In this document: positions 1,446 to 25,058 of the stretch, piece by piece
Position numbering within the stretch: the stretch's first letter is position 1
Layout of the letters: each line of letters begins with the position of its first letter
Source of the DNA: Catajapyx aquilonaris
Taxonomy: Eukaryota
Reading direction: 5' to 3'
DNA length: 43,636 nt
NCBI GenBank assembly: GCA_000934665.2
Contig: JYFJ02003328.1
Location: forward strand, 1-43,636
Made by a program: the position numbers and the translations under genes
The notes under the pieces: model-generated
Databases searched by the model: none
Seen by the model: only the letters and a program-made list of their open reading frames with translations
Told to the model about the DNA's origin: nothing

Positions 1446-1450
1446 CTTAA

Positions 1451-2705: not shown

Positions 2706-2779
2706 ATCCCCGCCAGGAATCGAACCTGGGACCATCTTCATTGCAATGCAAGAGTGCTCTGCCACTGAGCTACAGGGAT
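2706..2779 (-). ncRNA. tRNA-like cloverleaf T1 in POP1a intron (Ala-like)
   Basis: ATCCCTG-TA-GCTCAGTGGCAGAGC-ACTCTTGCATTGCAATGAAGATGGTC-CCAGG TTCGATT CCTGG-CGGGGAT. 7-bp acceptor stem extendable to 11 bp; irregular anticodon arm; no downstream T-run. Confidence 0.7.
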
Positions 2780-3142: not shown

Positions 3143-3475
3143 AGGGGAGGCGAAGTGGCGCAACGGTAACGTTCGCGCACACGGATGTTAAGGTCTCGGG
3201 TTCGATCCCAACCTGGGGACACCCCCTTCATCTCGTGCAGAGTTCAGGGGTCGCCTCTGGCTTCGTCTCGGGTGGTATTTCCTACAGTCTAAACCACCCG
3301 GGGGAGTTCACTAAAAATGGCCACAGCGTCAGATGCACTGCACCTTGCACATCCGCTCCTGTCATCCTGCCCGTGGGCCCGGGCGATACGTACAAAGGCT
3401 CCAATGTACACAACAATTAAATAAAGGTCCATGCGATAAACCCTGATGGGTGAAAGCATTACCCAACCAATTATT
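3143..3475 (+). mobile_element. tRNA-derived SINE, copy 1
   Basis: A-box AGTGGCGCAACGG, B-box GGTTCGATCCC, body shared with 11140-11454, short ATT tail, and a 14-bp TSD aaattacactttac (3129-3142 and 3476-3489). Confidence 0.85.
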
Positions 3476-5351
3476 AAATTACACTTTACGAAGGGCCAAT
3501 GTGCATTAATATCCGATCCATCTGAATTACCAAATGCAAATTCCGTTACTCATCCAGTCAGAAACCTTAATAATCCCTCAATATGTCCAGCCTTCAAACT
3601 ACAGACACGATCTCAAGGCAGGTATACTCGAACCCCCCATAGAGGCATAAAACCCATTGTACACCAATGTTACCTCGAAGCAGCTCAATTTTTGTGGCAA
3701 TTAAGTCATGCATGGAGTTAAATAACTCTTCACCTGTCAAGGCACATGACCACTGTGTGGCTTATGCCCAGTTCATTCCCTTCAATCACTTTTGTGATAC
3801 TAGAATCTTTGCTCAACCTAAATGGCCTACAACAGGTTTTATGCAACTAGAGTGGTACGTTTCTAGCAGTATACCCACCTTGGTTCACCGTGTGACATGT
3901 AATCCAAAGGTAATGCCAATCTCCCACCTGAAAGCAATGTCAGGACGCAGGATGCATTCTCAATGGGAAAAAAAGATGGTTCACTCCATCTCAATACGTC
4001 TTGGTAATGGCGCATACGAAGCAATTGAGCTAAAAGATCTCCGCCCCTTCTACTTAGTCCTTACTTTGCATGCGTAATGGCCTAACATTATTTTCATCAT
4101 AAAATACTATCATAAAATCCTCAAGGGTGCCCAATGTTTGAGGCAGTGATTAGCAAAAAAGTTGCAGGAATATTTCTGGTAAAAAAAAAAAATCCCAGCA
4201 TATGGACGTTGGTATGAAGTTGGTTGGTCATGTTCATGGGGAAAGAAGGGTCACAAGGGTATTGTTCGAGTAATCCGTTGCGTCATAGAATTTCCAGGAG
4301 CAGATTTTAGCCTGCATACCAAACCATTGGTGCATTTGGGTTTGGCACTTTCAGGCTCTTACTCTCTTTCTCTAAGGTAATGTAGCCTAACCTCACAAGT
4401 CGTTCTGCAGTCTTCACCATGTCCACTTGCATAAAAGTGCAAATTTTACATCGCAGTCGTCACTCAAATCATGAAGCATTGCTTTTATAAGTAAAACCCA
4501 CATATCAAGAGTCTACATGTCGTTGAGATCGTGGTAAAATTTGCCCCATTATGCCGAAACAAGGTGCACGGCTGCATATTCCTGTTAATGTCGTAATAAA
4601 TTATAACTCACCAGCACAGAATCAACCGCAACCTCACAATTTCAGCACATGCATAAAATTCTCATTTAATAATTGTGCAACAAGGTGGCCTATCCATTAT
4701 TATCCATTATTTACCTCGCCACTGAATCTTCAGAATTGTACGTAAATGCCGAATGAGAAGCAACGGCCAATTCAGTGCAAGTGGCACGAATAACACAGCT
4801 CTACCACATCCTGTCCTTGGCCGAGGTGTCCACTGCTGCACAAAATGGAGCCTAATGGTGCAGAACCAAGTTCACAACCCTTCACCTGAAACAGCAAAAT
4901 TCTGGCATTAGTTTCACACATCCTCCAGATCACATTCGCAGGTGGCCAAACATTACTTACACGAGTCAGTTACAGCAGGCCTCATCAGCACTTCCTACAA
5001 TATTAATGCTCCCCCACATCTACAAGTACACTCCCTTTTACGAGTTGGAAGCATTTTCCCCACAAATTTCATCACTTTTATGAACCAAGGGGACCTGAAT
5101 TATGTCAACCAGTTCGGCAGTATCATTACCACAAACAAGTAAAAGCTTGAATCCTCTACAACTCGGTCTGACACTGAATTCTTATTTCAACTTCAGAATT
5201 TGCCATTGCCAACACCATTATTTCACTTCATCCTAACCTGACTTTTTCACAAGTCAAACTGCGCATGAGCAGGACTCCCTCCAGAGCCAACCCACAACCC
5301 CTGCTGGAATTCCACTGACTCAAGCTGAATGCTGCCAGTGCAGTGACTTCC

Positions 5352-5424
5352 GCCCCCGCCAGGAATCGAACCTGGGACCACCTCTCCTCGAGAGCGTGTG
5401 CTCTGACCACTGAGCTACAGGGGC
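5352..5424 (-). ncRNA. tRNA-like cloverleaf T2 in POP1a intron
   Basis: Acceptor GCCCCTG/CGGGGGC, D stem GCTC/GAGC, middle arm CAC-G-CTCTC-GAG-GAGAG-GTG, T arm CCAGG TTCGATT CCTGG. Confidence 0.7.
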
Positions 5425-5572
5425 TTCCTACATCTGCAAGACAGCAGTCAGGTAAATACAATTCACCTGCTTTTCCCATCTTTCAACTAAAAGGAAGAAC
5501 ATTCAAGCAGTCATTACGTGTTGTTCCACAAAAACAATTAAAAAGGCACAACCATGGCAGAGAGTGACCCTA

Positions 5573-5644
5573 GCCCCCGCTGGGAATCGAACCCAGAAAC
5601 ACACTTGACGTCCAGTGTGCACTCCGACCACTGAGTACAGGGGC
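5573..5644 (-). ncRNA. tRNA-like cloverleaf T3 in POP1a intron
   Basis: Acceptor GCCCCTG/CGGGGGC, D stem ACTC/GAGT, middle arm CACACT-GGACGTCA-AGTGTG, T arm CTGGG TTCGATT CCCAG. Confidence 0.7.
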
Positions 5645-6381
5645 TTCCCACTGACCACACATGGTTCCACATCACTCGCGTGCGCACACACATACACACA
5701 AAAATAAAATAAGTGCAGACTGCATAGATATTGGCAATGGCAATTTCCAAACATGCAAATGAATTTAATTCCTCCTATTTATGTAGGTCAGATCAGGTGG
5801 TGCAGTGACTTCAGAAATCATTCCCCATAGTAATCCGCACCAGATGAATGAATAAAAGCATCTCCAAAAGCAGCCAGACTGCCCAAGTTGAGCGCTCAAC
5901 TCATACTGCCCGACCACTTTTAGAACCGCATTTAATCAATCACACCACAACCACCTTCAACAAATGCTTCGATGAAGTTTCCCCCATCACAGCCAACCCA
6001 ATGGTTAAGCTTACCTTGCAGGTGACCACACGTGAACCCATTTCCAACACATGCAATTGTGGTAAGGTCCTGACACGCAAATAATCATGAAATGCAATCC
6101 CAATGTACACATATCCACTTGCTCTGAGTTTCAGTACTTAAAATTCCACGTCATAGGAATATTTTTTCCCTGCATTTAGATGCAGCAAGAACCATCTGCA
6201 ACAAAGCTAGTTATGATCTCATCCTATGTGGCTGCTCAGAAGCGACAGCATAATGTTGCAATACTAATCCGCAATTAAATTATTATTTTTTAAACATTGT
6301 TACTTCCTTGGCTTGGAGGAAACCCTTCTGTCAGGGTGAGGTGAGTAATGGGAAGTCATCGACTCCAGCATGGTGAGAGGT

Positions 6382-6452
6382 TCCCCCGCCGGGACTTGAA
6401 CCCGGACCTCGGATTGTGTAACCCGTGTCTTTGCCAGTTGGACCACAGGGGC
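6382..6452 (-). ncRNA. tRNA-like cloverleaf T4 in POP1a intron
   Basis: Acceptor (G)CCCCTG/CGGGGG(A), D arm GTC-CAACTGGCAAA-GAC, middle arm CGGGT-TACACA-ATCCG, T arm CCGGG TTCAAGT CCCGG. Confidence 0.65.
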
Positions 6453-6710
6453 GCCAATACCCGCTCTGTCATTTCGCATCAGGGTGAGATTGCAGTGAAT
6501 GGATCCAAAGAGGTTTTCTCCAGGCCTTCTTCCATCATAGTGATTTAACGGACAACATTATGCCGCCCTTCCACTTCCCCAAAGTGCTCTCATTTTCTTT
6601 CAATTTCAAGCACACGCTTGGCAGTGAAGAAATAACACACAGCGAAAAGTGCTTGCTCGTCATATTCACACCCATAAGCTCTGAACCTTGTAGTGGGTCT
6701 TTCGTTTTTG

Positions 6711-6783
6711 GCCCCCGCTGGGACTTGCACCCAGAACAGCACCGACCCCTAGGGACAGCACTGCACCACTTGGTTTCAGGGAC
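6711..6783 (-). ncRNA. tRNA-like element T5 in POP1a intron (counterpart of T8)
   Basis: Acceptor GTCCCTG/CGGGGGC, reduced D arm ACC-AAGT-GGT, long middle hairpin CAGTGCTG..CCC-TAG-GGG..CGGTGCTG, T arm CTGGG TGCAAGT CCCAG. Confidence 0.6.
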
Positions 6784-6844
6784 TGTTTTTGTCACCACTA
6801 CTTGGCCTCCTCCCCCCCGAACCCATTGGCATGTCACGTTTCCA

Positions 6845-6919
6845 ATCCCCGCCAGGAATCGAACCTGGGACCAGCCTCATTGCAATGCATTGAGTGCTCT
6901 GCCACTGAGCTACAGGGAT
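6845..6919 (-). ncRNA. tRNA-like cloverleaf T6 in POP1a intron (near-duplicate of T1)
   Basis: Same acceptor, D and T arms and immediate flanks as 2706-2779; middle arm CTCAATGC-ATT-GCAATGAG. Confidence 0.7.
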
Positions 6920-7192
6920 TAGATGAATGCCTCTTTCCCCTCATGGGCCATTTCAGTCAAGCACCAGTCATACACGGTAAGTTTAAGTGAGACCTTCTAT
7001 AAAACACTGCCATTCATAATCACCTTCACGTATTCCTTTCATACACATGTGTATTCAGCAATAAATAGGCACAGGCGAAATATTAATTAAGAGCATCAAA
7101 ATTCGTTAATTGTGCCTAAGGTGCCACGAATATACCTGGATGGAAACGTGTGTGAGTACGGAGACGTGTTGGAAATGAAAAAGACTCCAAAC

Positions 7193-10100
7193 CTGAAGTG
7201 CTGATCAGTCTTCTCTCTCCTCTTTACCCTTTCCTCCATCCGGCAGGCGGCTGAGTCCGGACAGTTCCAAGGAGCAGGCAGCTGCCCTTGCTCGTAAGCC
7301 GTGGCAGCAGCCTCCCTAAGCCCCCCAACTCGAGCCCCGCGGTACACTAAGCTGATCCAGAAGGCCATGGCCCAACCCGGAGGGACAATCACATCCCAAC
7401 CACAACCATAGCCTGGAATCATTTCGAAGGATGGGGAGGGGAGAGGACAGGACAAAAAAGAACATTGCATCAAGTAAACTTCGGAATGGCTCAAACGGCA
7501 AGACTTCTCATCTCACTTTTGGGCCTTCAATATTGCCTCAGGTTGTAAAAACAGGTCACAAAGAGCCACTTTTTTTTTGCATGCTAGCAAGGGTCTCGAC
7601 ATGTGACGATTCAATTAGGACTACAATTTTCAAACTTCACCGTTCTGGTGAATTGAATGACAAATGGAAGTGAAAGGCCCAAAATACGAGATGGGGGGGA
7701 CACAACAAAAGCAAAATGGCGGCCCGCTGTGATTGTGGGTGATGGGAAAGGAACAAAAAAAATAAAAAAGTGTGCAAACCATTCCTACCCAGCCTCTTCT
7801 CTTTGGGATCTTGGCTGCCGGGTCTTTGTATAAGTATGACTGGAACTCTGGCTTCATCTTGGCCCAGGTCCAGCGGAGTGCCGGGAATGGTGTGCCTGGC
7901 TCTTATCTCATTCATCTGGTTATCCGAGGTCTTGGTGGTGGTTACCTCATCCCTCACCCAGGCTTCCCATAAAGGGGATGCACTCAGCAGGGTAGGGAAC
8001 TCACCCAACGATTCCCCTGTTGTGTCCCATGTTACTGTACGAAACAAAGGGGTAGAGGTCACTCACAGCCACATCAAGCTAACGAATATGCGGTAAAAAA
8101 ATATATATTCCAGTGAAACTCCTGACGTACCATCGATGTCTGGTAAAACTTTAGTCCTCTTGGGTGGCAGCAACACCCTCGGATCTCTGACAGTCAGACC
8201 TAGTATGGCGCGAGGAGGAACCTGAGCTGGTGATAAGGCGCCTTCCAGATCCTGCCAGACAGCTCGCTGACCAGCTGCCGCTTTCTTCCCATCATCCGTG
8301 GCATAAAAGTACTGCCACCATTGAGGGCGACTGCGCCCTCGCTTTTGTTTCACTCCTATGCTCTCATCGCCACTGCTAAGATCGCTTTCCAGAAGCGGAG
8401 ACAGCACAGTGTTGTTGTTCTGCTTCACACACCCGTTGGCATCCCTCTTGACCGCAATCCCCTCCAAGTGGTGGCGCTTGAGGCCGCCATTTGGAGAATC
8501 ACGTGGCTTCCTTGCTGGCCTTATGTCCACAATATTGGCAGGTCTGAGGCAGCTGCTTAGAATGGCACCAGACGATGGTCCTTGAAGCCTAAATCGATTC
8601 AGTGTGTCCTTCAGCAATGCCATTCGGACAGCCCCATTGCTGAACTTGGGAACCCGTATAAATGGGATGTTGCGAGTGGCCAGTTTAAGCTGATCGACAT
8701 TTTTCCTGGGTCGTGATTCTTTGGCCAATTTCTTACGCTTCACATTCTCCTCATCTTCATCTTCCACCACGCATGGTATTATCTCATCCTCCAGGGGCGA
8801 CAAGCCAAATACCGCCACCAGCTCGTCCACAACTTCCTGGTAAAATGAGGGGTGGACCCAAATCCACAAGTTGCGTGAACGCTCAACATCCATGGGCAGC
8901 AATCCATGCTTGACCCTGGCATGGCGGAGGATCCGACCAGATGTGAGCCAGTCGAGGGGCCTCCACATGAAGGACACCTCCCCAATGGCTCCCTTCGGAT
9001 ATTCCCCCCTATGGAAGAGGACAGCGCTCCCTTCGCGGTTCCCACCCAGCAAGCTCTTGGCTGCAAAAGTGAGGCCGCAAGCAGGATCCGTTATGGCAGA
9101 GAGGCCTTCTAGAAGCTTATTCTCAGGGCCTTCTAGCTCTATACATACGTTGAAGGAGATATCCTGCAAGCCCCAGCCCGGAGGGAAAAGAGGAGCGATA
9201 ACAAAAGGCTGTGGGATTGCTTGTTAAAGCGGTTAATGTTATTTTGCATTAATTTGAAAATTTAATTGGATTTTTACTTGACTAATTCCTTCACATTTGT
9301 GTTCATGTCAAGTGCATCAAAAACTTTGCAAGTAATTATTCTGGAAAAGTTCCATGCAATCGAACAATCAACGAAACTTTTGACAAAATCATTTAAATGA
9401 AATATTTCGTTATTTTAGCAAATGTCACTGCGTGTCGAGACGCTCGTTAATCCCCGTGTTAGCAATACCCTACTGCTACCCACCAGAATTCCTCGGGTTA
9501 ACTTTACCTGTAATAGGCAATTACTTGCACTTGCTCGGTAGCAAGCTCTCACACTTTTGTCATTCGGAAAGTTGGCAATTTTATAGCCCCACTTTACAAC
9601 CACGTGAAACCTGCAAAAACAAGGGAGTCCTCAGAACCTTCACACTTTTTCTTTCTTTCTTTTCTTTTCTTTTTTTTTTTGCATTTCATACAATTCGGCA
9701 TCTCCTTCTGCTTCATCCAAAAGTAATAATAATCAAGGCAGCCACTCATCAAAAACATTAACTTCCACCTACCTGCTTCTACACACATGTACCCCCTGAG
9801 CTTTTCACAGCAAAAGTGATTCTCATGCAATGCGCACACAGTTGGTAATAAAACACACAGGAAACACATGACTATATGAATACTTTTGCTGTGAAACTCT
9901 CAAGTCAGAGTCAAGATGATGTCCTGCTCCTTTATTCTCTTAATTACCTACCTCATGGCTTAAAATCCTGAAATGAATGTTTTATTTGCAACATAACCAT
10001 CTCTTGTCTTTTTGGCCTTTTTTTTTGCCCCTTCCCAGCCAACCCACTTCAATTGTATTTTCATTCAAGCTGCTGCGACCTTCAGTTGTGATACCACAGT

Positions 10101-11026
10101 GGATAAGTGAAACTCACCCCCGCCGGGAATCGAACCCAGGACCACGCCGGTTGGGCGAATGCTCTAACCACTGAGCTACAGGGGCTCCCCACTAGGCACC
10201 AGGTATACACAACTTCAGTATGTTTTCCCAACCCCCCCTCCCACATTTCCTCAAATTAACATTGGGGGGGACGGAAAAGAAAGAGAGCACACCCCCTCGT
10301 AACATTTCACTCACCTTTTCGCATGCCACTTATGAGTTTCCAACCATACATTTTTCCTCTGCCGCCTGTTATACTCAGCCAAGAGGTTACTAGGTCTTCT
10401 ACGGAATTTTCGACTAGGTCTCTTTGACTTGAGTGGCATGCCACTCTTTTCCAACTGTAAGCAAAATGAAATATAAGTCTTTTTCGCAACCGTGACAACA
10501 AAACAGCCCACGAGACGTACCTGATTAATGTGAGGCTCTCTCAGTCTCCTGGGCATTCTGTTTGCATTGTGACTCATTGCCCTTCTCCTCATGTACCTTG
10601 GGAGTTGTTGGAACACAAGCGCAGTCTTGGTGGGGTTGTCTAGAGTGGAACATGTCGCATGAATATATGTTCCAAGTGTAGGCATGCGCCACCAACTGAT
10701 TTAGAGAAACCATTGCTATTGTTGCAAGTGGCGTTGAAAAATCAATGTCATATTTTACTGTAATCTGGCCTTATGTCTTCACAAAAGCGTATAATTTACA
10801 CGAGTCAAACATCTCTAGTTCCAAGAAAGGACGTGTCACACACAAAAATTCTCCCATGGCCTGGCTCACCTATAGACTGCGACATGGTTCCAAGCTCCTG
10901 CACCCTGGCAGCCACAAACTTTGTCATGGCCAGATCGGAGGTCAGCTCTTGTTGACCCCCTGCCAGGATGTCGAATTCTGTCTTCTGGGGCTCCATCTTG
11001 CACAGCATCCTTCTAAAGAGCTTCAT
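7193..11026 (-). CDS. POP1: RNase P/MRP protein subunit POP1, copy A (3'-partial; remaining exons presumably beyond the window start)
   Basis: Phase-consistent GT-AG exons: 11026-10870, 10639-10521, 10454-10315, 9610-9508, 9163-8131, 8034-7789, 7412-7193. The protein has POP1 hallmarks [55 protein letters not shown] and [22 protein letters not shown]. No RPNY-containing next exon was found in 1-7192. Confidence 0.93.
10116..10185 (-). ncRNA. tRNA-like cloverleaf T7 in the POP1a intron after the WHAKR exon
   Basis: Acceptor GCCCCTG/CGGGGGT, D arm GCTC-AGTGGTTA-GAGC, middle arm CGCC-CAACC-GGCG, T arm CTGGG TTCGATT CCCGG. Confidence 0.7.
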
Positions 11027-11139
11027 GCGAACCTCTATACTTAGTCACCCTCTTGTCTTGAAGCTAATCATCGTGCCTTACGTAGCGTCTGAAAAAAAAA
11101 AATCAATATTAATGCCCGTCGCATGTTAATGGTTATATC

Positions 11140-11409
11140 GGGAGGCGGAGTGGCGCTGCGGTAACGTACGCGCCCACGGACGTTATGGTCCCGGGTTTGA
11201 TCCCAGCCCGGGGACACCCCCTTGATCTCGTGAAGAGTTTAGGTCGTCTCTGGCTTCGTCTCGGGTGGTATTTCCTTAGACTAAACCACCCGGGGGAGCT
11301 CACGAAATGTACCCATAACAGTCCCTGCACTGCACTTTGCACATCCCCTCCTGCCCATGGGCCCGGGCGCTTCAATAGGCACCAATGTACAATAATAAAC
11401 TACCCCAGG

Positions 11410-11454
<45 letters not shown>
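11140..11454 (+). mobile_element. tRNA-derived SINE, copy 2
   Basis: Homologous to 3143-3475, with a long (ATT)n tail and a 17-bp TSD atgttaatggttatatc (11123-11139 and 11455-11471). Confidence 0.88.
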
Positions 11455-11456
<2 letters not shown>

Positions 11457-14435
11457 GTTAATGGTTATATCACAAATAACATAGTTTGGTGGTAAAGTTG
11501 CATCATTGATAGTAAAATGGGCCAGCCAGTTCGATTGCCCTCCATTTTGTTCCGCCCACTCACCATCCACCCACCCACCCACCAAGCCCGCCATTTTGTG
11601 CGACGTCATATTATTCGCCAAAAAATATATATTTTTACGCCCAAGTTTACGCTGCTAAAAAACAACAGGCAACGAACCGAACCCAGCAAACTTTAAACTG
11701 AGCTTAAATTGCCGCGCGTCGACTTAATTAACGTCGGGTTAAAATATTTAACCGAAGCTATTTTAACCCGGTTTATGTTGGGTAATTGGTAGCCTGCGAA
11801 TAGTTTTATGATTTGATATTTTTTGTACACTGTAAATATTGCAGTGGTCTGACCACCCTTACAAGATGGCCCGAATAGAACGGTTTTCCATGCCCGCTGC
11901 TTCCGGGGGCTGATTGCACGCTGGGGGGGCTCTGTACAACTCCGTACATTCCCATGCATCCGGTCCCGCCCCTGGTTGCACTCACCACCGCCTGTGGCCC
12001 GCCCCGGGGCCGCCCCACCGGCCCTCGTCAATCCTGCGTCGTTCCATCGAGGAAGGCGGAGATGGAATAAAAAGGAGGGGGATGCGTTCTGAGGGGGTGG
12101 GGCAGGGCGAGTGGGGCGAGGTTGCCACGTCGACCACGCTGCGTTGCCAAGTCGGGCAGGCGCCAGATTTCAACGTTTCGTTTCGTTCCAAATTGTTTCG
12201 AATGGGCCTTTTGGATGGCTAACAATGAGGCTTTTTTCAACACATTGTTGCATTGTTGTGGGGAGGTACCTGAACGGTACGGAGGTGTTTGTAACGGGAA
12301 GTGGGTTGCGTGGCGTGGCGCATGTGCGGGGTTGTTTTTGAGGGCAAGGCAGGAGCCTAGCCTCGCAGGCCAAGGGGTTCCTCACACCACCAGCCAGACG
12401 GCCATTTTGAATCGACCCACTCCCACAAGAACATTTTTTTGGAAAGAAAAAAAAAACGTAACCCGATGTTAGCTTCCGTAATGTAATTCTTCTGTTGTCG
12501 ATAGGTTGGAGGTCAACGAACTCACCTGTAATTATCCTGACCATAGTATCGGCGTAGTAGCTCACTGAAACATATGCTAGGTTATGCGAAAGGCGCATCA
12601 AATCTATGCAAAATCATGCCATTTTTGCACGTAAGTCGCAATAGTCTTTGCTCACGAAGGGCATTAATCAGATGGACATGAACCGCAGTGAACCTTGGAG
12701 AGTAACCAGGGTTAACCCACCCATACTAAAGAATTTCCATGTAACATTTCTCCGCTATGCAATAATCAGCATCGTTCTCTACTTGAAGAAATGAGGATTT
12801 CCACAGAACCCATCCAAATGAATCAAATGCATCACCAACAGATTATTCTGCATATAAGACCCTTATAGAGAAATAATTATGACAAATTCAGCCCTTCATA
12901 TCCGGTTACTTCGCATAATGAAGCCACTTTCGAGGCACTACGTGAAATCCAGGCCTAAGTTCTACTGATATTGGATCCGCCTACCATGAAACAAAGCCTT
13001 TGTTACGAGGCAGTTCTAAGAATGGTGATGACAAAGAGCAGGTCGTTTCTGTGTATCCGACTCGCGTATGCAGAGTACGGGCAACGTAAGATTTCGGAAT
13101 AATGTGCCACGCCATCTTTATCTACGCAGTCCTCTTGCTACCCTGAGACTCTTTCCCCCCCACCACAAAATGTGGGTCGCGGTCTTAACATCCCTCCAGC
13201 CTTCTTCCCAAACTCCTTCTGGTCCCTCGAAGGAGACATGCATGGAAACCCGATGATTTGGTGGCATGCAAGGAGTGGTAACCCACCTTAAGTTGTGGGG
13301 AGGCCAGGTCGCCAGCGGACCCCAGGACTCGCTGGGAGCTGGCATGGCGGCCATTTCCTGCTGCAGAGAGGAGGGAGAAGAAGGAAGGAGGCCTCTCTGT
13401 CTCCCACAGGAGGACGAAGAGGATGGGGAGGGTTGGAAGAGGGGGACTCCTGGTCTCCCCCTTGCCCCTCGCTAGCCTCGCACCCGATCAGGAACGGGCT
13501 GCAAAACAGGGAATTGTGTGATCCCAGCAGCCGTGTTCAGGCTTCTCCCACACGGCGCTGTTACCCACTCTATCCCGATTACGAGGGACAGGAGGGAAAA
13601 TGGGTTTCTTTTCAAGTTCTTTAGACTTGTGGTTAGGCAAGGTTCTGCAAAGGTGTAACATGTAACACAGGGAAGTAAACAGAACAATGCATTCATAGAA
13701 TTGTAAGGTGTTTGTGTACATGTAACAGAGGGAAGTAAACACCAATGCTTTCATATCACCGGAGCTTTATTTTAACACTAATTCCTTAGTGTGTACATAG
13801 GAATGATTTCTCCCAGTGGAAGTCAGTCAGAAATCTCTAATTTCTCAGATCTTTCCTGCAAGCAACCAGCCAGGCAATAAATGCATGGTCCCTCACACCA
13901 GCAAGTTCCTTCATATTATGGCAGGCCTGCCCATTATTTATGACCTACTGTCAGTAACAAGACAATACATGACATGAGTAAGCCACCCCCCTGTAATCCT
14001 AATAAGCTGGAGTCTAAATGCGAAACCTAGTACCAGGGTGAGCAAATTGTCAGTAAAAACATGGAGCTAGGTCTTACAAACTGGCGGTCCATGTGGCACT
14101 GGGACAATAGCAATTTGGGCAGATGTAAAAATATGCCCCATTAGTGAATTGTAATCTTTGCATGAAGCAGACAGAAACCATCTTACATAAGTTACAAACA
14201 AACATTCAATGGGTATCCCTTTGGTTTAGAACTGCTTGAATAACAAACCGAAGCACAAATGAACCAATCATTCACATCCAACTGGCAGTAAAATACTGAA
14301 CAATCTGTATTTAGCTCATCGGGACCTTAGAATCGAAAATTGGAACCTTTGCCATTTCAACTGTAACAGCCGACTGATTTCTACAAGTTGACTACTACAT
14401 CCCCATCAGAATGGCGTTATTTAAACCATTTGAGA

Positions 14436-17400
14436 TCACTGGGTAATGGCCAAATTAGCCAAGTGGTACTGATGCGAATCTGGGTTCCGTACAAGCACCT
14501 TAAGGTCCCTATTCCACGGCCTAGTGCTTATCAGTTTCAGCAATCCGGGAAGTGCTATGAATCCTAATCCTCTTCCCTGGCCCTCAGTCGCTGAGAATTT
14601 ACCCTGGCAAGCAAATCCAAATGTCTCCCTGGAGCATGCCTCACGAACTGTGGTTACATCTGCCAACCACAGAGAACGGAGCTTCTCATCATGTTGCATT
14701 CCCAAATCTGGCAAAGCATCAGCTGCAACCTTATCCTTTTGCCGATTGATTTGCTCTTGGTTCTTCCTTTTTTTCCTACGTTCCTGTTTTCTGGGAGTAA
14801 AATCCATTCTATTACATACCTATCGACATGAAATAGTATTATGTGTATTATAATATATTTAGAGGCTACTTCCTACCCAACACAATTATGTAGTATGCGT
14901 ATCAGTAGGATATAAATTTCAAATTTGTAAACTTGCATTACAAGCCTCCATTACATATGAGTAAAGATTGTGATAATAAAAGTGAAAATTTCCTAATCCT
15001 GGCATCCGGGCTTGTCACAAGCACGGCAAGAAAAAGCCACTCAGAAGCATTTCATTAAGATATTAAAGAAGTAACATGAAAGTCATGTACTTAACTTGGC
15101 CTGACCAATAACTTAACCGTAATTTTACATTAATTACATTTACAGCAAGGAGCCAGGGATCCTCAAACATTAGCTAATGAATCCATCTTTAAACGCTGCC
15201 CCAGCAGGGCTCAAAAAGAGTTTCATTGATCCTTTGATTATTCTGGCTTGTTTCATTGTCCAAGAAATTAAACTAAGACTGCTTTAAATTCCCTTGGAAA
15301 TTCAACCGTGCACCAATTTGGCTTTAATGTTCACTGGAAGAGTAATGTTCACATAGCATTTCCCATGCTCTTCTTACATGATTCATGTATACACTGAATA
15401 ATAATGTCAGTCAAACTATTACCAGTTAATGTTATGGTTGCAAGCTTACATAAATGATGCCAAATAATTTCGGGTTTATTTCAGGTGTGTACAGATACCT
15501 TAACATGGAAAAGTTTGCGGATCTCTACTTATACCAAATGTGGCAAAAAATTATGCCCCGAACATAAGTCAAGACTGTAAATAAATTCATACTTAATTCT
15601 GATGTGCTCGTGTCTAATTTCCTCCCTCTCAGCCTTGTGTATGTCCTTGTGCTGGGGTTCCGTCCAACCCTTCCTCTGTATGTCGATATTCTGAGGCAGG
15701 CAAATCATTGCTTGGGGTTTAATGTGGCCTTTTTTCACCAGGTTGATCTTGACGGCCACCAAGCAGTTCATCTCTTCTGCAGGAATCTTTTGCAAAAGTG
15801 ATCCTTTCATCTTTTGTTGTGGAGACAAGGCTTCACTCAGTAATTTCAGTCTCATTTTGTTTCTCAAAACAACAGGAACAAGCTGCACCCCCTTCATTTC
15901 TCCAGAAGCAGCAGCCCAGTCTTGTATTAGTTCACTCCACGGAGAGTGGAAAGGAGCCACTGACCCATACTTGACGTAGTTGGGACGATGACTAGGTGGC
16001 AACCTACAAGAATATATCGCTAAAGAGCCTCACCTAACCTGCACATTCATGATCTTGTCCCTTACAACATTATCCTGATAACACTTATGGATTATTATAT
16101 TCTGACTATTTCAATCACCGTGTCTTTTAAAACACGTAGCTTCAATTCCTACACCTGCCTATAAACTTACTAGTTCCTCCAAAGTTATATCCACCTTGAT
16201 GTGCTGGTGTGGCTCCGAGAGATATGTCAGAGTGGGATGTCTTGGCTTCCGACAGAGCCTTCCCAATTAAAATGGCATCTGAACATCCTGAGTCAAAGAG
16301 AGGCACCTCCTTACCTGTAGGTCCCTGCCTCCCTCAGTTATATCATTATTATTTATATTAACCTATGCTATGCTGCTTGGCCTTAGTTGCCCTGGCTCCT
16401 TCCACTAATCTAACTAGAAAACTTGGTAACGGTTTTTTTTAAAATAACCTGCTTAAGGGCTCCTTAACCCTGTAGCGGGCATTGTTGCCTGAGGGCAACA
16501 ATTAATTTGTGCAGGTGCCATAAGCTTCAACATTGGTCCTGGAAACCACAGTGTGGCTTGATGTCACAGTTAGTTTGTTAGCTTCCGCTGGATGACATGC
16601 AATGTCGACAATGTTACGATCGGGATATGGTATGAAGCGGAGAGGAGCCAAGGTCGTTGAAAATGGGGCGCGAAATTTGAATTTGCTGAAGCAGCAATTG
16701 TTTCTGGAGCTGATTAGATATAGGTGCAGATATTAAATATCCAATTGCATGTGTAACACTACAAGAGTAGCTCTCTCGTCGCCATTTGAGGCCATTCTAA
16801 TTTTGCCAGCACAATTTCATCACATTTTTTGGCGGCGCAGGCACAATATTGCTTGAGGTTTGTCCTAAGTCATTGTACTATTTTTATTCAAAAACGGAAA
16901 CATGTACAGATATGACCATTACTACGTTTTAAAGGCCCGGCGATTACAATTTGGACTGGAATATAGATGGCCCCGAGATCTCAAGGGGAGCCGGTAAACG
17001 AAAGGGGATCGTGACCCCCCACCCCGAGCTGCATGAGACGGTGGAAGGGTGGGGGTTATGATCGCCTTTAGTTTTCTGGTCCCCTTTGCGATATGGATGC
17101 CATCTATTTATCAGATGAAATTGTAATCACCGGACCTTCAAAACTTAGCAAAGGTTATCTCTGTATGTGTTACCATTTTTGAATAAAAAAATACTCGCCA
17201 TGACTTTTGACTCACCCGGTGTAACTTCAAAGTCATTGGGTCAGAGATGACCAAAACATAATAAAAACCATCCTTACGTCGCATATGATGAGAAAAGGGC
17301 GTTAGAATTTTTTTCTTCCCCCAATCCTAAATGTGTGCAGTACAGGGTTGATGTGATAATAAGGTGGATGTGGACATTAAGTCTGGATGAATCATTGAGA

Positions 17401-20400
17401 CCCTTTCATCCCAGACTTGTCACCAGGTTGAAATTGTATGTCACCAAGTAGCTTGGGTTGAACATATTCAGAAGAGTGGGAATGGTTTAAAAAATTTACT
17501 AGCGCACAATTAGCATTCCGATTGCCATATGCAACGTTAACCCTAGTGTTTTGTCGATTGCAGATAATGTTTAAAACTATTCTGTTGGGACAAAAAATAT
17601 TTGAGCTCCCCAAAATCACAAAAAACAACGAATCAACTTACGACATAACACAAAAGGAATGGCATGTATCCACATGTAGTGGTAGATAGTCACACTTGTT
17701 TTTTTTCCAAAAGCAGGCCAGCATTGATCTTGAAAAATTTTCCCATGAACTTATGCAAATACTGCCTGGAATTTCCCTTACTAGTTACTGCTAACTTAGC
17801 AGCACCATATTGCAATGGTAATGCTAAGTTAGCAGTAACTAGCAGTGGGACGAAAATTCCACCCAATGACATTCATCAGAAATAAACTACTTCAATTAAA
17901 ATAATGGCATTGTAGGACTTTATTCTCCACCATGTGGTAATACTAGCCTCCATGTCCAAGAAAGTCATTGAACACTGCGTGGGATCTTGACGTTAGAAGC
18001 CTGAATTGATGTCACCAGTGCGTCCACTCACCTTACGTAAAACTCAAGCCACTTGGGCATGAGGATTGCTTCATGTTTTCATAAATATGGACTAGTGCTA
18101 TTGACGTCAGGATCTGAATTAATCATGGATTCATTGCAATAATTTTGCTGTTTATAGCCGGTAATGAATGCGCGACAGCATTGGGCTGTAGGTCCCAGAT
18201 GTTATCAATGGAAATTTGGCTGAAAAGAGAGGGCTCTATCCTTATGGTGAACCATGCAGATGTCCATAAGCCATGAGTCTTCCCTTACCCTGCAAAATCT
18301 TGCTTATTTTAAAAGGAAAATAAATAAGATTTTTTTTTAAAAAACATTTCACTATAAGACAATCCACTGTCAGTGTTTGCAATCATATTTCACATATGAC
18401 TGCAACTATCTACCTGTAAATCACAACTAGACTGATATCAGCAATGTTCTTCCAATTCATAAGATTTTTTTTTTTTTTGGACAACAGACTGTAGTTGTTG
18501 TTATTCCTTTTTAATTGCAAGAGCCAAGGCAACTAAGGCCATGAGACATTGCTGGTTGTCGGTGTGACATACCATTACGTAGTGAAGCCCTACTACCAAC
18601 ATCTACTGATGTGTTGTCAGCCTATTCCACTACCCCTGCATATAACCGAATGTCTGTTATATCAGGAGTAAAAATACGCAGGGCCTTATGAAAGTTTGCC
18701 GGGACCAGCCTTTCGAGTCTGTTAAAACCGAAAGTCTGGTATAGCCAAGGCTGTTATATCCTGATTCAACTGTATTATTTTATGTGCGGTCAATAAAACA
18801 TGAGCCATTCCTATTGTGGAAAACGTGTGGGACAGGGAATAATGCGATTGGGAGGCACAACCTTCAAACCTTAAAGAAATTTATGTGAATGTGCATGTGA
18901 GGTTAGAGGGAGCAGCTGTCACATCACATGATCAAAAGGGAAGCAACACACGGAAAGTCGGTGCTTTAGTGGGTTGCTTCCCATTTGATCACATGATGCA
19001 CCGCCTGGTCCCTCTAGCCGCGCATAATTTTCTTTAAGGTTTGAAGGGTGATCCCTGCCAATGTGTCCCATGGGTTTTCCATGATAAAATTCGGCTCATT
19101 TTTTATTGACTGCACCTAATGTCATCAATTATTGTAAAACAAAACCTTTAATAGGACCTTCTCAAAGGAGAAAATACTTATCCTACCTTTCTTGCCTTAC
19201 AAAAGGCACATAACACATGCCACCATATCCGTTTTCAAACTGAACTTCAAACCATTAGCTCTTCTTAATTAATTTCAAACTCATCACCAACTGGCAGAAT
19301 AAAAAGTGCCTCGTTTTCGTCTGATGAGCAATTCAAGACTACAGAAATCCCATAACTTTTCTTTTATCTGTATTTTTCTCATCTGAGGAGCTCCCAAGCA
19401 AAATCAGCTCTATCCGACCGTGTGAAAAAATGAGTTTGAAGTGGCATTGAATTTTCCATGTTGTCCGCTACCTAGTATTTTGTATCATGACCCATTTGCT
19501 CCGTTCAAAAGAATGAAGCAGGAAGTGAAAAATAAGTACACAGGATGGAAGGTAGGTGAGGGACCATAAGAAGGATTCAGACATAAGGCCCATTCACACA
19601 GGCCGCCGCCGGTTTTGGTTTTTGGTCGCGTTGACACCGCGGACCAATCTGACTCATGTAAACAAGCACAACCCATTGTTTAGAGCTTGTTTACATGGGT
19701 CATGATTGGTCCGCACGGTCAACGCGACCAAAAACCAAAACCGTCGATGGCCTGTGTGAATGGACCTATAAGGGATGTATAAACTACCAGATACATTGGA
19801 TTTGTGCCCATTCCAAGGGACACAAATGTGAGCTGAGATGGGACTACCAGCACACACAACCAGTACCAGTACTCTCAAGTAGCACGACCCCCTGTTGTTT
19901 TCAGGCCGTCAATGGTGGAGCCATCATCAGTAGCCCTGCCCTCAATGGCCATCTAACGGTCACGGCTTGGGTGCACGGACACAAGCCACCCATCAAACTC
20001 ATTCGCGTGAAGGGCCACAAGGAGTAAGCATGAATAATAGTCTAGCACCATCCTGGAACAATAAAATTACACCAATTGCATTTTCAACCAACAAATTACC
20101 AACGTCACCATCTTGGAGAAGTGGTCTTTGTACTCACAGTCAGAGTTGCAAGCCTTCAAAGTTCACCAAATATCAAAAACAAAATTTAAAAATCTTGTTG
20201 TCTTAACTCCACTTATGACTGAACCTAATCCAACATTACGATTATGCACAAAACAATCCCACTAGGCATGCAAAGCATTACAAACTGCCCGAATCAAGAA
20301 CCAAAGTACCTGTGTTCACTAAACAGAAGCTAATTCGTTGCATGTGGTGTCGTTTGGCCCCTGCTGGGAATTGCACCCAGAACAACACGTGTTTTCACAC

Positions 20401-22630
20401 AGTGTTGCACCGCTTGGAACAAGAGCGATTTGTCACCACTACAACACTAACGGAAGTTAGGGGATAGTATTTCAAGAAGACATGCAGCAAAGTAGCAACA
20501 TCTTAATCACATGAATCACTAGTTTTAGTCAGATGTAAAGACCCACCAATCATTGAAATTACTCTACCCTGCAGCTAGCTTCAAAATAATCGCATTCATT
20601 GCTTCACAGAATGAAAACAAGAGTCAAACCTGAAATACTCATCAGTGTTCTCTTTCCTCTTGATGGCTTCGTCCTTTCTGCAGGCCTCTGAATCGGGACA
20701 GTTCCAAGGTGGCAGAAGCCTTCCTTGCTCAAAAGCTATGGACGCTGACTCCTGCATGCCTATCACCTTGGCGCCTCGCTTCATCAGGCTCTTCAGGAAA
20801 GCATTTGCCCAGCCTCGCGGTAGGATCACATCCCATCCACAACCAAAACCTGCAACAATTACACACTCAGTATGGGATCCAAATGTGCAACTCAACAAGC
20901 GCAAAATTATATTGTTGTTTATGAATAAACATTACATTTTTTTTAGATCACGCTAGTCCATTATTCTATGATCTTAGGGCAGTAATACCATATTTACAAC
21001 CTTTGCATGGCTACCGTACCAGTCTTTTCCCCATTTCTGTCTTGCACACCAGGAATCTGAACTAAGATAATTGGCACAGCAGACTCATCATCCCCTAGAT
21101 CCAGCAGGCCTCCTCCGGGAGCAAATTGGGCTTTCAGGTCATTTAGATGCTGGTCTGACGTCATGGTGTCTGTCACATCTTGCCGCACAATCTTGTCCCA
21201 CAGTGGTGAGAAACTCACCATCGACGGAAGCGTGGCAATGGAGCTACCAGAAGTGTCCGAAGTGTCAGCTGCAAAATTAAATTCAAGCTAAGTAATGAGC
21301 GGTGAATAAAATCATGGCATACCTCCGGTAACGGACAAAACACTGGGCTTAAAAATTGACTTAAATCTTCCACACACCCTCAGTGTCCGGTTGTGCGTCC
21401 TGTTGAACAACCAGACGGGGATCTCGCACCACCACACCTAACACGGACTTCGGTGGTAACTGCGAGGGAGACTGTACACCTGCCATTGCCTTCCAGGTAC
21501 GATTCTGCACTTCAAATGCCGTCTTCCTGTCTTCCGTGGTATAGAAAGTAGTCCACCACTTGGACAGGCTCTGGCACCGCTCGAGCGTCACAGCCCCAGC
21601 TTTTCTTCTGACATGCTCACCTAAAATTCTAGCTGGCTTCAGACAATGCTGAAGAGTAGTTAGAGACTCGCTTCCTAAGACTCGGAATCTGTTCAGCAGG
21701 CCTTTCAATGCGCAAAGTCGCACAACGCCATTGCTGTACTCCATGTCTTTACGTCTCTTTTGAGGTGGTTCAGCCTTTTCCTCGAAAGATGAGACCAGCT
21801 GTTCCCAAATATCTTCCCAGAAGGACGGGTGGGCCCAAATCCAAAGGAGGCGCCTTTCATTTTCATCCTTGCTTTCGAGGGGCCTCCACATGAAGGCCAC
21901 TTCCCCGATGGCACCCCTCGGATACAAACCACTCTGAAAGAGTAAGCAGCTTCCCTCATGGCTTCCGTTCAGGTAGCTCGCAGCCGCAAAAGTCAGTCCG
22001 CACAACTTGCTTGTGAGAGAGGACAGGCCATCCACAAGCTGATTTTGCGGGCCTTCAAGTTCGATGCACACATAGAACGAAAGATCCTGCAATATTTGAG
22101 AAAACAGCATCAGATTTGGATCCACAGCACTGTACGCTCTAACGAGTACCTGAACTGTGCAATTGGAAGACAGCTTCTCATTGGGAATGTCCGCTATATT
22201 ACAACCCCATGCTTGAACCATCCGGAACCTGCAACAGCAACATACTTTTTCCACAAGCACTCACAGGTCGTCGAGACAAACATGAAAAACAGCAATAATT
22301 CAATTTGCTTGAAATCCGTGGTCCTTGCTGCAGGCTACCACGGCAGCGTTTGGATATCACCCCCGCTGGGAATCGAACCCAGAACCACACCCGATTCCAG
22401 GTGCTGCTCTGACCACTGAGCTACAAGAGTTCGTCACCATCCACCGGGGCAGCCCTTAGCAACGCACCTTTCACCAAAATCATCTGAACAGCCCATCTGC
22501 GCATCTTTCATGACTTTTGCCTCAGACTCACTCAATTTCCCTGCTCACCAAACAACGAGAGGCGTACTCACCACTTGGCATGCCAATCGTGCGTTTCCGT
22601 CCGAGCCGACGTGTCATTGTTACTTGACAT
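14436..22630 (-). CDS. POP1: POP1 paralog, copy B; N-terminally truncated and diverged, ~693 aa
   Basis: Exons 22630-22572, 22228-22150, 22086-21378, 21268-21020, 20849-20630, 16003-15593, 14790-14436 (2082 nt, open frame). Intron positions and phases match copy A where comparable. Motifs ETHDWHAKWFRM, LLWIWAHPS, GFGCGWDVILPRGW, RLPPSHRPNY, VLVRNPDSHQYHLA. The start codon is inferred. Confidence 0.85.
16853..17223. mobile_element. MITE family C, palindromic copy (Tc1/mariner-like end)
   Basis: Imperfect ~180-bp inverted arms; right end GACTTTTGACTCACCCGGTGTA. Confidence 0.62.
17768..17860. repeat. Short inverted repeat (hairpin or MITE remnant)
   Basis: Perfect 21-bp arms ctagttactgctaacttagca (17781-17801) and tgctaagttagcagtaactag (17822-17842). 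Confidence 0.75.
18783..19116. mobile_element. MITE family B, internally deleted hairpin form
   Basis: TA-TGTGCGGTCAATAAAA ... TTTTATTGACTGCACC-TA; the arms abut directly. Confidence 0.72.
19587..19766. mobile_element. MITE family A, full palindromic copy (PIF/Harbinger-like)
   Basis: TAA-GGCCCATTCACACAGGCC ... GGCCTGTGTGAATGGACC; the element is near-palindromic throughout. Confidence 0.7.
20357..20426 (-). ncRNA. tRNA-like element T8 in POP1b intron (counterpart of T5)
   Basis: Acceptor GCTCTTG/CAGGGGC, middle arm CAACAC-T-GTGT-GAAA-ACAC-GTGTTG, T arm CTGGG TGCAATT CCCAG. Confidence 0.6.
22359..22430 (-). ncRNA. tRNA-like cloverleaf T9 in the POP1b intron after the WHAK exon (counterpart of T7)
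   Basis: Acceptor ACTCTTG/CGGGGGT, D arm GCTC-AGTGGTCA-GAGC, middle arm CACCTG-GAAT-CGGGTG, T arm CTGGG TTCGATT CCCAG. Confidence 0.7.
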
Positions 22631-25058
22631 AGTCGGCTCCTCTCCTCCCTGGTCTACCTAATAATTACTCTACCTTCAGGGCCGATGCGGTGCATTTTTG
22701 CAGCTAAAATGCGGCACATGTTAATCGCAATGGGAATCACACACGTACAATATGTAACGAGCCTCACCTTTTAATCGTGTAGTCGCTAAACGAGCCATGG
22801 TTGGTTCCGTCTCAGCACCGCACATCCATCTTTCTGCCTGAATTAAATTAGATTAAATTAATTAAAAATTAAATTAGGTAATCTGAATGAAATTAAACTA
22901 ATAGGAAACTATCCCTTAACTTAAGTGACCCTCTCAATAGGTTTCATACCTTTTCTATAACTATTTACAGCTAATCTATACCTTCCATACTTCCCGCCCC
23001 TGCTTGTGGCTCGCCCCTGGGCCAACCCGGGTCCTGCCCCGGGGCCAAAACCCTGTCCAAAAAAAAAATCGAACGTGGAACACTCTTTGGTCGACAACTG
23101 CCAAAGTAGCATAGCGGCTACCGGATCATTGCGTAGTCAGTGTTTGTAAGAAAACCTCTTCTTACGTGTAATTAGGCTCGATAATTAGCTGCGTAATAAG
23201 ATTGTAAAGTACATGCTGATTGTATGACACACAATACTGGTCCTAGAGCTGGTTTTAGTCAATGTAACAGGGTGTAACATCTCTAGTTAGTTAAAAGCTG
23301 CTTAGTGGGAAACTAGCTGCGATTCTGACCCAAGCCAAATGGCGGATGCGGTGTTGCCAAATGTGACGCCGCTGCCAAATTTATTATTCATTAATTTAAA
23401 ATATGATCGTCTAATTATGCTGCAATTACCATCATGGGCACTACTTTTTATAACTAATAATCAGGTCATGTGTTTCATAGTTATCACAAGCACATTTTAT
23501 TTAAAAAATATTAGGCGCCGAATTTGAACCGAAATTTGAACTGATTACCTTAGAAGCAATTATTGCTAATTGCAACCTATTGTAATTGTTGAAACGTACA
23601 GCCAGGTTTTTTTTTAGGTCAAATTCTTATTTTTAACGGTGGGCAGAGCCACAATAACATTCGTTGGCACAATGACGAACCGCATTGTTGGCCGGATTCA
23701 AACCCCAGCACAATAGGGCTCCTTCTGTTTGAATGTTTGTCCTGAATATATATTTTTTTCACACGAGGTGCGGTGGGTGACTCACTGCAGAAGCGACCCT
23801 CCGCAGGCTCTCCATTCTTGTGAGATGCGCGCCAATGGGGGGGGGGGACATCCCTGCCATTTCCAGAAATGGTCATCCACTTTTTTTCTGTCTCCTTCCC
23901 CTGCCTTTATTAACTGTCCCCCTTTTAACCATTGCACTCACGTCTTTTGTCATTTTTCTTCTTCTTCTCTGTTGGGTCCCACTGCTTAGCTAGCTAGCAA
24001 GCCGTTGCCCCTTGCTGGCACTAAATCCCCTCAAAGTGCTGGAAGCTATTAGCTAGGGTCGTGACTGTGCACAAGTGCTCGACTAATTCACACATTCTCG
24101 CTGCCTTATATCACTAGACGCTGCAAAACAAGTCTGGGTGGCCAGGAACGTGCCGGAACGATCCGGGCACCTTCAATTATTATCTGGCACAATTTTTTTT
24201 TTCTTCTTCTTCTTCTGCGCGCGGGATTGTTGTCCATCGTTACAGTATGCCTGGTGTAAGCTCTCTGACCTTAACGACTCCCCATAAAAATTAAAGGCTT
24301 GATTTATGGTGGTGCCCGCAACGTGTCCGATCCAATTCTATCAACACCCTGCCACACATGCTTGCTTGGCACCAATAATAATCGCCAGGCCCACCCAATT
24401 AGAAGACTGGCGAAAATCTGCACGCACCACACACCTCATCACATCGACAGCAACCAAAAAAGTTACGATGGAGCTGCACATTATGGCCATCAAGTTGTCT
24501 GAATTTCACATTCTTAGGAAGAAATATTTTAAGCAGAAAATGTCCAGTGCTAATTCGGTCACTTTTTTTTTATGACCACGACACAGCATTCGGAGGTCAT
24601 GAACCAACCAGTGTTTGAATCCGATCTGGCGGCCGGATTAAACCAAACAAGAACCAAACTACAAACGACTTGTTTATATCGTAAAACAACAAGAGATTGA
24701 TAAGAGGATTGGAGGCTTTGGGGGTCACCACCAACCACCCTTAGTAATTTTTTTTTTTTGGAAGGTTTTAAAAGAGTGGGGCCTCCGATTGGTGGTTGGG
24801 TCACGTGGGTGGGGGTGATGTGTGTTGATTCTGTCTAGTTCTCTCTCCCTTCCCCACTGTGTTAGAAACCCTCAGTTTAGTAGTGTGGGTCCAGCAGACC
24901 AGAGAGGAACTTGGGTGGTAGCAAAAAGGCAGGCAGGCATTACATCAATTGCAGGTAAATAATTCCCCGCCAGAAAAAAATCTGCTTACAAAATAACATG
25001 GGTTGCTAGAATGAACAAAAGGGCGCGTTTGAATTTGAATTTTTTGAAATATTTTCAG

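Follow-up and report, generated by a model that had tools for sequence, protein, structure and literature searches.

Two tandem paralogs of POP1 (A and B), the gene for the large protein subunit common to ribonuclease (RNase) P and RNase MRP, are encoded on the minus strand of the 43,636-nucleotide (nt) stretch of Catajapyx aquilonaris DNA analysed here (the window; contig JYFJ02003328.1 of assembly GCA_000934665.2), and their introns carry, in sense orientation, several transfer RNA (tRNA)-shaped elements, two of which, T5 in paralog A and T8 in paralog B, form the pair considered in this work. The acceptors of T5 and T8 start 409 and 203 nt, respectively, downstream from the 5' splice site that follows the homologous GCGWDV exon, in agreement with the original prediction, which had placed both a few hundred nt past that exon and regarded them as kept there since the gene duplication by selection on the RNA fold. 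The nature of the hosts is clear: the GCGWDV exons of both paralogs correspond to the POPLD domain (Pfam PF08170; E 8.5e-20 in A and 5.8e-18 in B), the large POP1 exon retrieves 32 POP1 homologues, the top one an arthropod protein at 36% identity, and tblastn with a POP1 protein recovers collinear exons in both copies.

A contig from run X5, whose kind is unrecorded and which is taken as RNA solely from this spliced contig, joins 7413 to 7790 and 7193 to sequence outside the window; paralog A is therefore spliced, and the intron bearing T5 measures at least 7192 nt. The T5 stretch itself is uncovered by X5 contigs, which weighs neither for nor against the element. The corresponding intron of paralog B, placed by homology only, spans 4.6 kilobases (kb). 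The donors after the two POPLD exons read CAG/GTTTGG in A and CAG/GTTTGA in B (7186-7192 and 20623-20629, minus strand), the form CAG/GTTTG being unusual in having T at +3 and +4; the WHAKR exons of the paralogs, unlike the POPLD exons, have the donor GTGAGT.

Read on the minus strand, T5 runs from 6801 down to 6711 as GTAGTGGTGACAAAAACA followed by GTCCCTG..GGGTGCAAGTCCCAGCGGGGGC, and T8 from 20442 down to 20357 as GTAGTGGTGACAAATC followed by GCTCTTG..GGGTGCAATTCCCAGCAGGGGC, so that the leader, T loops, middle arms and acceptor strands named in the original prediction are all present on this strand; the minimum free energy (MFE) fold of both cores is a cloverleaf with acceptor and middle arm paired. 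T5 combines a 7-bp acceptor, a 3-bp D arm and a 5-bp T arm with the loop TGCAAGT, and its long middle arm (9+3 bp) includes four G-U pairs among the nine; T8 has the acceptor GCTCTTG/CAGGGGC, the T loop TGCAATT and, as middle arm, the perfect Watson-Crick hairpin CAACAC-T-GTGT-GAAA-ACAC-GTGTTG (6+4 bp, no G-U pair). In each element the acceptor is paired at 7/7 positions and the T stem at 5/5. Both cores fold better than shuffled sequences, with an MFE of -35.3 kcal/mol for T5 (z -3.2; 0/200 shuffles as good) and -27.0 kcal/mol for T8 (z -2.4; 3/200 as good), and when the flanks are included both gain a closing leader/trailer stem (z -2.8 for T5 and -3.0 for T8). Taken by itself, the leader/trailer duplex is not significant in T5 (-15.9 kcal/mol, equalled by 24% of random genomic controls) and marginal in T8 (-20.4 kcal/mol, equalled by 8.6%). 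The B box reads GGTGCAAKTCC in both, as compared with GGTTCGATTCC in typical copies of the family described below, and the A-box region reads CCAAGYGG.

The duplication of POP1 is ancient. Over 381 aligned codons the paralogs share 48-62% amino-acid identity, synonymous differences are saturated (pS 0.755) and only 34/101 fourfold sites are identical, while the POPLD exons are 70% identical in BLASTN. A BLASTN comparison of positions 1-13000 with 13001-26000 (word size 7, E<=1) found no intron similarity beyond the tRNA-like elements and other repeat families, which bears out the earlier judgement by eye that the surrounding intron is unalignable and is the opposite of the equal conservation of flanks that had been named as evidence against retention. 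Because synonymous sites are saturated and the introns unalignable, a neutral relic of the ancestral intron is excluded for T5 and T8, and the pair must be either constrained or younger than the POP1 duplication.

The pair itself is real and homologous. In the same search, 6707-6742 matches 20353-20388 at 33/36 positions (E 4.4e-8), and the leader GTAGTGGTGACAAA is identical at 14/14, so that identity comes in blocks amounting to 47/50 positions, unpaired spacer included; the 5' acceptor/D part, however, differs at 8/23 columns, the inner hairpins are unrelated, and overall core identity is 69%, against 71% between T5 and another copy, T5572. T5 and T8 have in common a 4-nt deletion in the D arm, T55G and G57A, and group together with support of 81/91, or 95/96 without the anticodon (middle) arm, as a clade sister to T5572 (88/94) with a long stem and terminal branches of 0.42 and 0.44 changes per column; on these characters they are each other's closest relatives. 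Likeness may extend into the trailers for ~65 nt beyond the core: aligned over 70 nt, the trailers reach a score of 22, where shuffles average 8.8 (0/300 as good), although the distal part alone is equalled by 30/500 shuffles. The repeat TTAGTG flanking T8 was tried as a target-site duplication and discarded (p 0.32), the trailer likeness seeming to pass it.

By our count, ten substitutions separate the stems of T5 and T8; nine keep the pair and one opens the D stem. Pairing is thus largely retained, as the original prediction had it, although just one of the nine (G-C to A-U) alters both partners of the pair, the others being one-sided through G-U. The probability of at most one newly broken pair under random placement is 0.07 with transitions only, ~0.035 with 90% transitions and 0.003-0.008 with 67%, the test being post hoc in that the stems were taken from the same sequences. 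Some states are shared with neighbouring copies: columns 2-8 of T8 (CTCTTGT) equal those of T22358, 1.9 kb away in the same paralog, two C-to-T states being common to the acceptors GCTCTTG (20420-20426) and ACTCTTG (22424-22430), and A57 and G59 of the T5 T loop also occur in T6379, 260 nt off. Exchange with nearby copies may lie behind these common states.

Run unfiltered on both strands of the window, a covariance model of the family cores (R1) recovers nine copies and no more at E<=1.2e-11; for the nine further matches listed, E>=0.81. All nine lie on the minus strand, in sense, within POP1 introns between 2705 and 22430 (Table 1), and R1 finds no copy in the remaining 21 kb of the window. 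Acceptor cells are paired in 98.4% and T-stem cells in 100% across the nine, with 13 stem cells changed on both sides, a number matched in 0/500 shuffles; the alignment behind these counts was fitted to the structure, and counts based on MAFFT agree. The middle arm, by contrast, differs in every copy except T2705 and T6844, and in typical copies the frame lies 0-6% from the family consensus beside middle arms that are completely different; 7/9 middle arms nevertheless fold better than shuffles (p<=0.055). Leaders pair better with their own trailers (-20.4 kcal/mol) than with those of other copies (-16.5 kcal/mol; p 0.0045 by permutation), and random genomic controls reach -12.5 kcal/mol. In agreement with the claim that the relevant level is RNA, all nine copies fold better in sense, the excess with 30-nt flanks being -10.7 kcal/mol as compared with -4.2 +/- 7.2 in 259 intronic controls. 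Two further members form a second collinear pair: in the WHAKR intron of paralog A the acceptor of T10115 lies at +129 nt from the 5' splice site, and in the homologous intron of paralog B that of T22358 lies at +141 nt.

Table 1. Features discussed in the text; positions are those of the window.
Feature	Positions	Strand	Remarks
T5 leader GTAGTGGTGACAAAAACA	6784-6801	minus	GTAGTGG pairs with CCACTAC of the trailer
T5 core, tRNA-shaped	6711-6783	minus	R1 64.4 bits, E 8.8e-14
T5 trailer CAAAAACGAAAGACCCACTAC	6690-6710	minus	weak likeness to T8 trailer may reach ~6646
T8 leader, containing GTAGTGGTGACAAATC	20427-20446	minus	13 bp with trailer
T8 core, tRNA-shaped	20357-20426	minus	R1 61.0 bits, E 6e-13
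T8 trailer CAAACGACACCACATGCAAC	20337-20356	minus	pairs back to T8 leader
T2705 unit	2684-2794, core 2705-2779	minus	flanking 7-nt direct repeat AGGGAGA
T5351 core	5351-5424	minus	18-bp leader/trailer stem of its own sequence
T5572 unit	5531-5663, core 5572-5644	minus	perfect 8-bp direct repeat 5523-5530/5664-5671; T-rich 3' end
T6379 unit	6341-6478, core 6381-6452	minus	perfect 10-bp direct repeat 6331-6340/6479-6488
T6844 unit	6823-6931, core 6844-6919	minus	109 nt, directly upstream of T5 leader, between T5 and exon
T10115 unit	10087-10212, core 10115-10185	minus	flanking 7-nt repeat ACTGAAG
T22358 core	22358-22430	minus	strongest leader/trailer stem of the nine, -33.9 kcal/mol
POPLD (GCGWDV) exon, paralog A	7193-7413	minus	221 nt; both edges from spliced X5 contig
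POPLD exon, paralog B	~20630-20850	minus	edges by homology only

The ends of these units and their flanks indicate that the family is mobile. The direct repeats at the unit ends are significant for T6379 (10 bp, p 0.001) and T5572 (8 bp, p 0.029) and weaker for T10115 (7 nt, p 0.085) and T2705 (7 nt, p 0.10), delimiting units of 111-138 nt, and T2705 and T6844 are 95% identical over ~110 nt amid unrelated flanks, their differences clustering in the middle arm and trailer. Other repeat families are common to the big introns of A and B as well, at 68-87% identity and with some inverted pairs that look like miniature inverted-repeat transposable elements (MITEs) (39-113/19578-19772, 323-1035/18773-19120 and 1260-1447/16863-17223), and parallel arrival of repeats therefore does occur here. 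Another repeat has a tRNA-like head (GGTTCGATCCC / GGTTTGATCCC) but is unrelated to the family; it lies on the plus strand at 3145-3378 and 11140-11370, antisense within introns of paralog A (87% and 73% identity; R1 E 0.8-1.7).

At the same time, the family is low-copy genome-wide, with tens of copies. Contigs of three DNA runs from one sample (~254 megabases each) were compared with positions 5300-7450 at >=80% likeness, a stretch that excludes T8, copies elsewhere being sampled through contigs rather than the whole genome. Each run gave 34-35 matching contigs, and in one of them, X1, 34 of 846,388 contigs matched the five elements, each at about single-copy depth. Read depth in X1, against a baseline of 20.6, was 197-201 for T6844, 74-77 for T5351, 48 for T5572, 31.7 for T5 and 29.8 for T6379, and contigs from elsewhere in the genome resemble T6844 in its core alone, their loose ends being unrelated. 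Just one additional contig falls on T5; as it runs on into the exon (joint 6742 to 7243), it is paralog B itself. A further copy of the TGCAA type was detected neither by R1 in the window nor among contigs at >=80% likeness, and the many such copies that would have implied independent insertions are thus not what these searches show; this orphan status is weak evidence, however, because T6379, a clear insertion, is nearly without relatives too. A metagenome scan for the T-arm pattern of T5 and T8 gave 0 matches, and a literature search for three family sequence strings found no paper. Two X5 contigs carry family sequence: one of 779 nt, with a depth of 13.6 where the spliced POP1 contig has 23, spans T10115 and both flanks (10085-10216), its loose ends agreeing with the window on each side of the unit, so that an RNA nature of X5 would mean that this piece of intron and its tRNA-like element occur uncut at a notable level, although contigs show neither levels nor ends; the other, of 4342 nt (depth 76.4), includes a core like that of T6844 (6848-6916, with 8 other letters and 5 gaps) between unrelated flanks, and another well-covered transcript or locus therefore carries a family member.

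The tRNA model RF00005 (gathering threshold 29 bits) is passed by 6/9 copies at 35.3-49.8 bits, yet T5 and T8 give no match even at E<=10; likewise, ARAGORN calls six other elements and neither of these two, whose middle arms, hairpins of ~23-25 nt with loops of 3-4 nt, are not the canonical anticodon arm of a 5-bp stem and 7-nt loop. Rfam returned only matches of tRNA type, with mascRNA, tRNA-Sec and others below threshold: against RF01684 (gathering threshold 42.5 bits) T5 reaches 22.3 bits (E 3.5), whereas T8 is not matched at all. A small nucleolar RNA reading of the leader was tried through a by-eye search for box C/D-like motifs and dropped, as no D box was seen.

Like tRNA-derived short interspersed nuclear elements (SINEs) and MITE-like units, the family has a core of tRNA type bearing motifs that resemble A and B boxes, short direct repeats beside some units, and dispersed copies with unrelated flanks, some of them recent and near-identical. 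Unlike a tRNA-derived SINE, its units lack a tRNA-unrelated body or A-rich tail at 111-138 nt, and they number tens rather than thousands of copies, each at single-copy depth. Flanking duplication, as expected for such SINEs, is significant singly in 2/9 copies (T6379 and T5572) and not in T5 or T8. As regards the shared terminal inverted repeats and fixed-length duplications expected of MITEs, leaders pair best with their own trailers, G-U pairs being used, and repeat lengths are 7, 7, 8 and 10. Unlike either class, each copy has its own middle hairpin and a leader/trailer stem with G-U pairs, and all nine are sense. The family resembles tRNA-derived SINEs and MITEs while departing from them in body and tail, in copy number and probably in shared termini.

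In the light of these features, T5 and T8 are best described as a branch, the most diverged one, within a small mobile family whose units are tRNA-shaped. The reading that we favour, with a confidence that stays just short of even, is that, once the gene had duplicated, the mobility of the family itself carried a copy of one element into the other paralog, and that changes in patches followed. That T5 and T8 belong to the family and are sisters, that the family is mobile and low-copy and that the duplication is old are observations; the timing of the copy, the mechanism of copying and the absence of a host function we infer. The unit consists of ~110-160 nt comprising a leader, a tRNA-like core and a trailer pairing back to the leader, the core having a conserved acceptor/T-arm frame and a free-running middle hairpin. 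Either T5 or T8 would have been copied to the neighbouring paralog after the ancient duplication, by local same-orientation copying of the kind suggested by the 95%-identical T2705 and T6844; the hairpin would then have been rewritten, probably by template switching, and the 5' acceptor strand of T8 would have come to match its neighbour T22358. Pairing may persist for three reasons: the copies would be much more recent than the duplicated genes, stem changes are for the most part transitions facing a G or U, and hairpins tend to be repaired as hairpins. Template-switch mutations are described as creating and maintaining hairpins (bioRxiv 10.1101/2021.04.15.439925, PMC8794818), and as a perfect Watson-Crick palindrome the T8 hairpin could be made in this way in one step; stems rewritten in one step yet perfectly paired would fit such a process, whereas the G-U-rich, sense-only stem of T5 and the covariation of acceptor and T stem across the family would not.

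Later copying is supported by the mobility of the family, the T2705/T6844 precedent, the identity of the spacer, the mosaic pattern and the other repeats common to the introns. In a mobile family that shows target-site duplications and includes two copies 95% identical to each other, post-duplication copying accounts for the similarity no less well than retention does, and block-wise identity including an unpaired spacer looks like recent common descent with patchy events rather than ancient fold constraint alone. The central claim of the original prediction, that selection on the fold has held the two elements where they are ever since the genes duplicated, is not established, given the mobile family, the block-wise identity and the single double change.

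Several observations nevertheless weigh against later copying. Random local insertion would, by our arithmetic, place a copy in the homologous intron and no more than ~400 nt from the matching splice site with a probability of roughly 0.05-0.1, and T10115 and T22358 repeat such collinearity. The orientation of 9/9 copies in sense has a two-sided p of 0.004 by our own arithmetic; the fold of T5 reaches -35.3 kcal/mol in sense as compared with -17.2 in antisense; and 9/10 stem substitutions are compatible with pairing (P 0.003-0.07). Since T5 and T8 have the A- and B-box defects in common, the copy that was mobilised would already have been degenerate. No convincing target-site duplication was found for either of them (6 nt at T8, p 0.32; only a unit-internal repeat at T5), and repeat lengths of 7-10 bp fit no single class.

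Another account, possible although somewhat on the improbable side, is that an ancestral tRNA-shaped element predating the duplication was kept in both paralogs by host-level selection as a cis-acting module of the precursor messenger RNA (pre-mRNA). An acceptor/T-arm minihelix set on the closing leader/trailer stem, with single-stranded A-rich spacers, would then be read by machinery that recognises tRNAs. Given such an ancestral element, cleavage by RNase P or RNase Z acting as negative feedback on an RNase P subunit would have an even chance of being the function; an intronic splicing enhancer for the weak GTTTG donor, which both introns have, would be rather less probable, and any other role unlikely. 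Position speaks for retention: both elements lie in sense in the same intron, at +409 and +203, with the T6844 unit between T5 and its exon, and the second pair is collinear at +129/+141, although T10115 has a candidate duplication of its own. All nine copies are sense and within POP1 introns, with none in the other 21 kb, and in a family of such low copy number (34/846,388 contigs) a large share of the detectable copies thus falls in these two RNase P subunit genes. Conservation at 47/50 positions despite saturated neutral sites, stems kept across the family with 13 double-sided cells, and the excess of folding in sense point the same way. On the other hand, identity of an unpaired spacer over saturating time exceeds what fold selection predicts; typical copies are young insertions with intact duplications, whose sense bias and clustering may stem from the insertion process; the outer stem of T5 alone is not significant; T5 and T8 differ by just one double compensatory change; and the alignment for the pair counts was fitted to the structure.

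The closest functional parallel to such a module may be the nimtRNAs, intronic mitochondrial-derived tRNA look-alikes described as raising splicing (Hoser et al. 2020, PMC7722341); there, the effect depends on their number and position, peaks 50-200 bp after the 5' splice site and needs the cloverleaf, strand specificity arises from G-U pairs, and five clustered nuclear tRNAs lowered rather than raised a reporter messenger RNA. T5 and T8 are likewise cloverleaves in an intronic position, and the family shares with nimtRNAs, as there portrayed, its clustering, the keeping of the cloverleaf despite base changes and the lack of maturation as tRNAs, which is why in its working it may resemble them most; its typical cores, however, resemble nuclear tRNAs in carrying the canonical GG and TTCGA loops and probably lie outside any nuclear mitochondrial (numt) context. 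An intron-encoded tRNA-like RNA is also reported for GUT15 of Arabidopsis (PMC6152437), and this RNA and mascRNA/MEN-beta (RF01684) have in common with the present elements a tRNA-shaped module without a working anticodon arm inside an RNA polymerase II transcript. By this parallel, one would expect such a module to be read by RNase P and RNase Z. To our knowledge, a closing leader/trailer stem is not a feature of mascRNA- or GUT15-type RNAs.

Self-regulation by RNA-processing factors has precedents, one being the hairpins of the DGCR8 transcript that are cut by Drosha. NOP56, with its intronic SNORD86, is described as regulating itself via its own substrate (PMC7722341). The logic would be the same for an RNase P/MRP subunit gene with sense intronic mimics of an RNase P substrate, except that here the POP1 loop is predicted from sequence, and cleavage and feedback are hypothetical; our literature search found no report of such a self-substrate loop for POP1 or any RNase P subunit. 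In its full form, this idea would have POP1 introns use sense tRNA mimics as sensors of RNase P/RNase Z activity, the enzyme to which POP1 belongs cutting the pre-mRNA of its own subunit at these modules, or binding them and altering splicing at the weak GTTTG donor, with modules that predate the duplication and are renewed by the mobile family, the fold being what matters; as a whole we regard it as unlikely.

Gene conversion occurs among dispersed tRNA genes, and concerted evolution without function, through patchwise conversion between T5, T8 and neighbouring family members, would account for blocks of 33/36 and 14/14 identity beside unrelated stretches, for the CTCTTGT shared by T8 and T22358 and the A57/G59 shared by T5 and T6379, and for frames 0-6% from the consensus around wholly different middle arms. 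It would, however, be unusual across 13.6 kb between 70-nt islands in otherwise unalignable DNA, it leaves the paired stems and the sense orientation unexplained, and the exon 200 nt away, at 70% identity, shows no conversion; we consider it quite improbable. That two unrelated decayed tRNA-like relics are alike by accident, the cores being no more similar at 69% than T5 and T5572 at 71%, is extremely improbable given the BLAST E value of 4.4e-8, the common D-arm deletion, T55G and G57A, the identical 14-nt leader and the clade support of 95/96.

If the host does retain T5 and T8 for regulation, POP1 would be, as far as our literature search goes, the first RNase P/MRP subunit gene found to hold mimics of its own enzyme's substrate; the resulting feedback loop, open to direct test, would have analogues in other RNA-processing factors that regulate themselves. 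If the favoured account of later copying by a mobile element holds, the family would still be unusual in its conserved tRNA frame and in copies that each have their own paired middle hairpin and closing stem, and a family all in sense within two neighbouring genes would be useful for separating selection on RNA fold from hairpin-preserving mutation; the case shows, moreover, that paralogous introns can mimic conservation.

A metagenome scan for relatives of POP1 recovered a single locus, a 2885-nt contig with an uninterrupted POP1 frame of 771 amino acids, which is intronless and so offers nothing to compare, and in which a tRNA-like match is absent. Paralog B keeps, at 22560-22920, just a short remnant (..THDWHAKW) of the N-terminal POP1 exon with stops immediately upstream, and tblastn at this paralog gave no match to residues 34-130 of the thrips POP1 protein; it may be truncated or have a different 5' structure. 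Outside POP1, four tandem arrays are found at 25814-26172, 29954-30339, 34569-34957 and 35369-35891, with start-to-start spacings of mostly ~50, 16, 95 and 27 nt, respectively.

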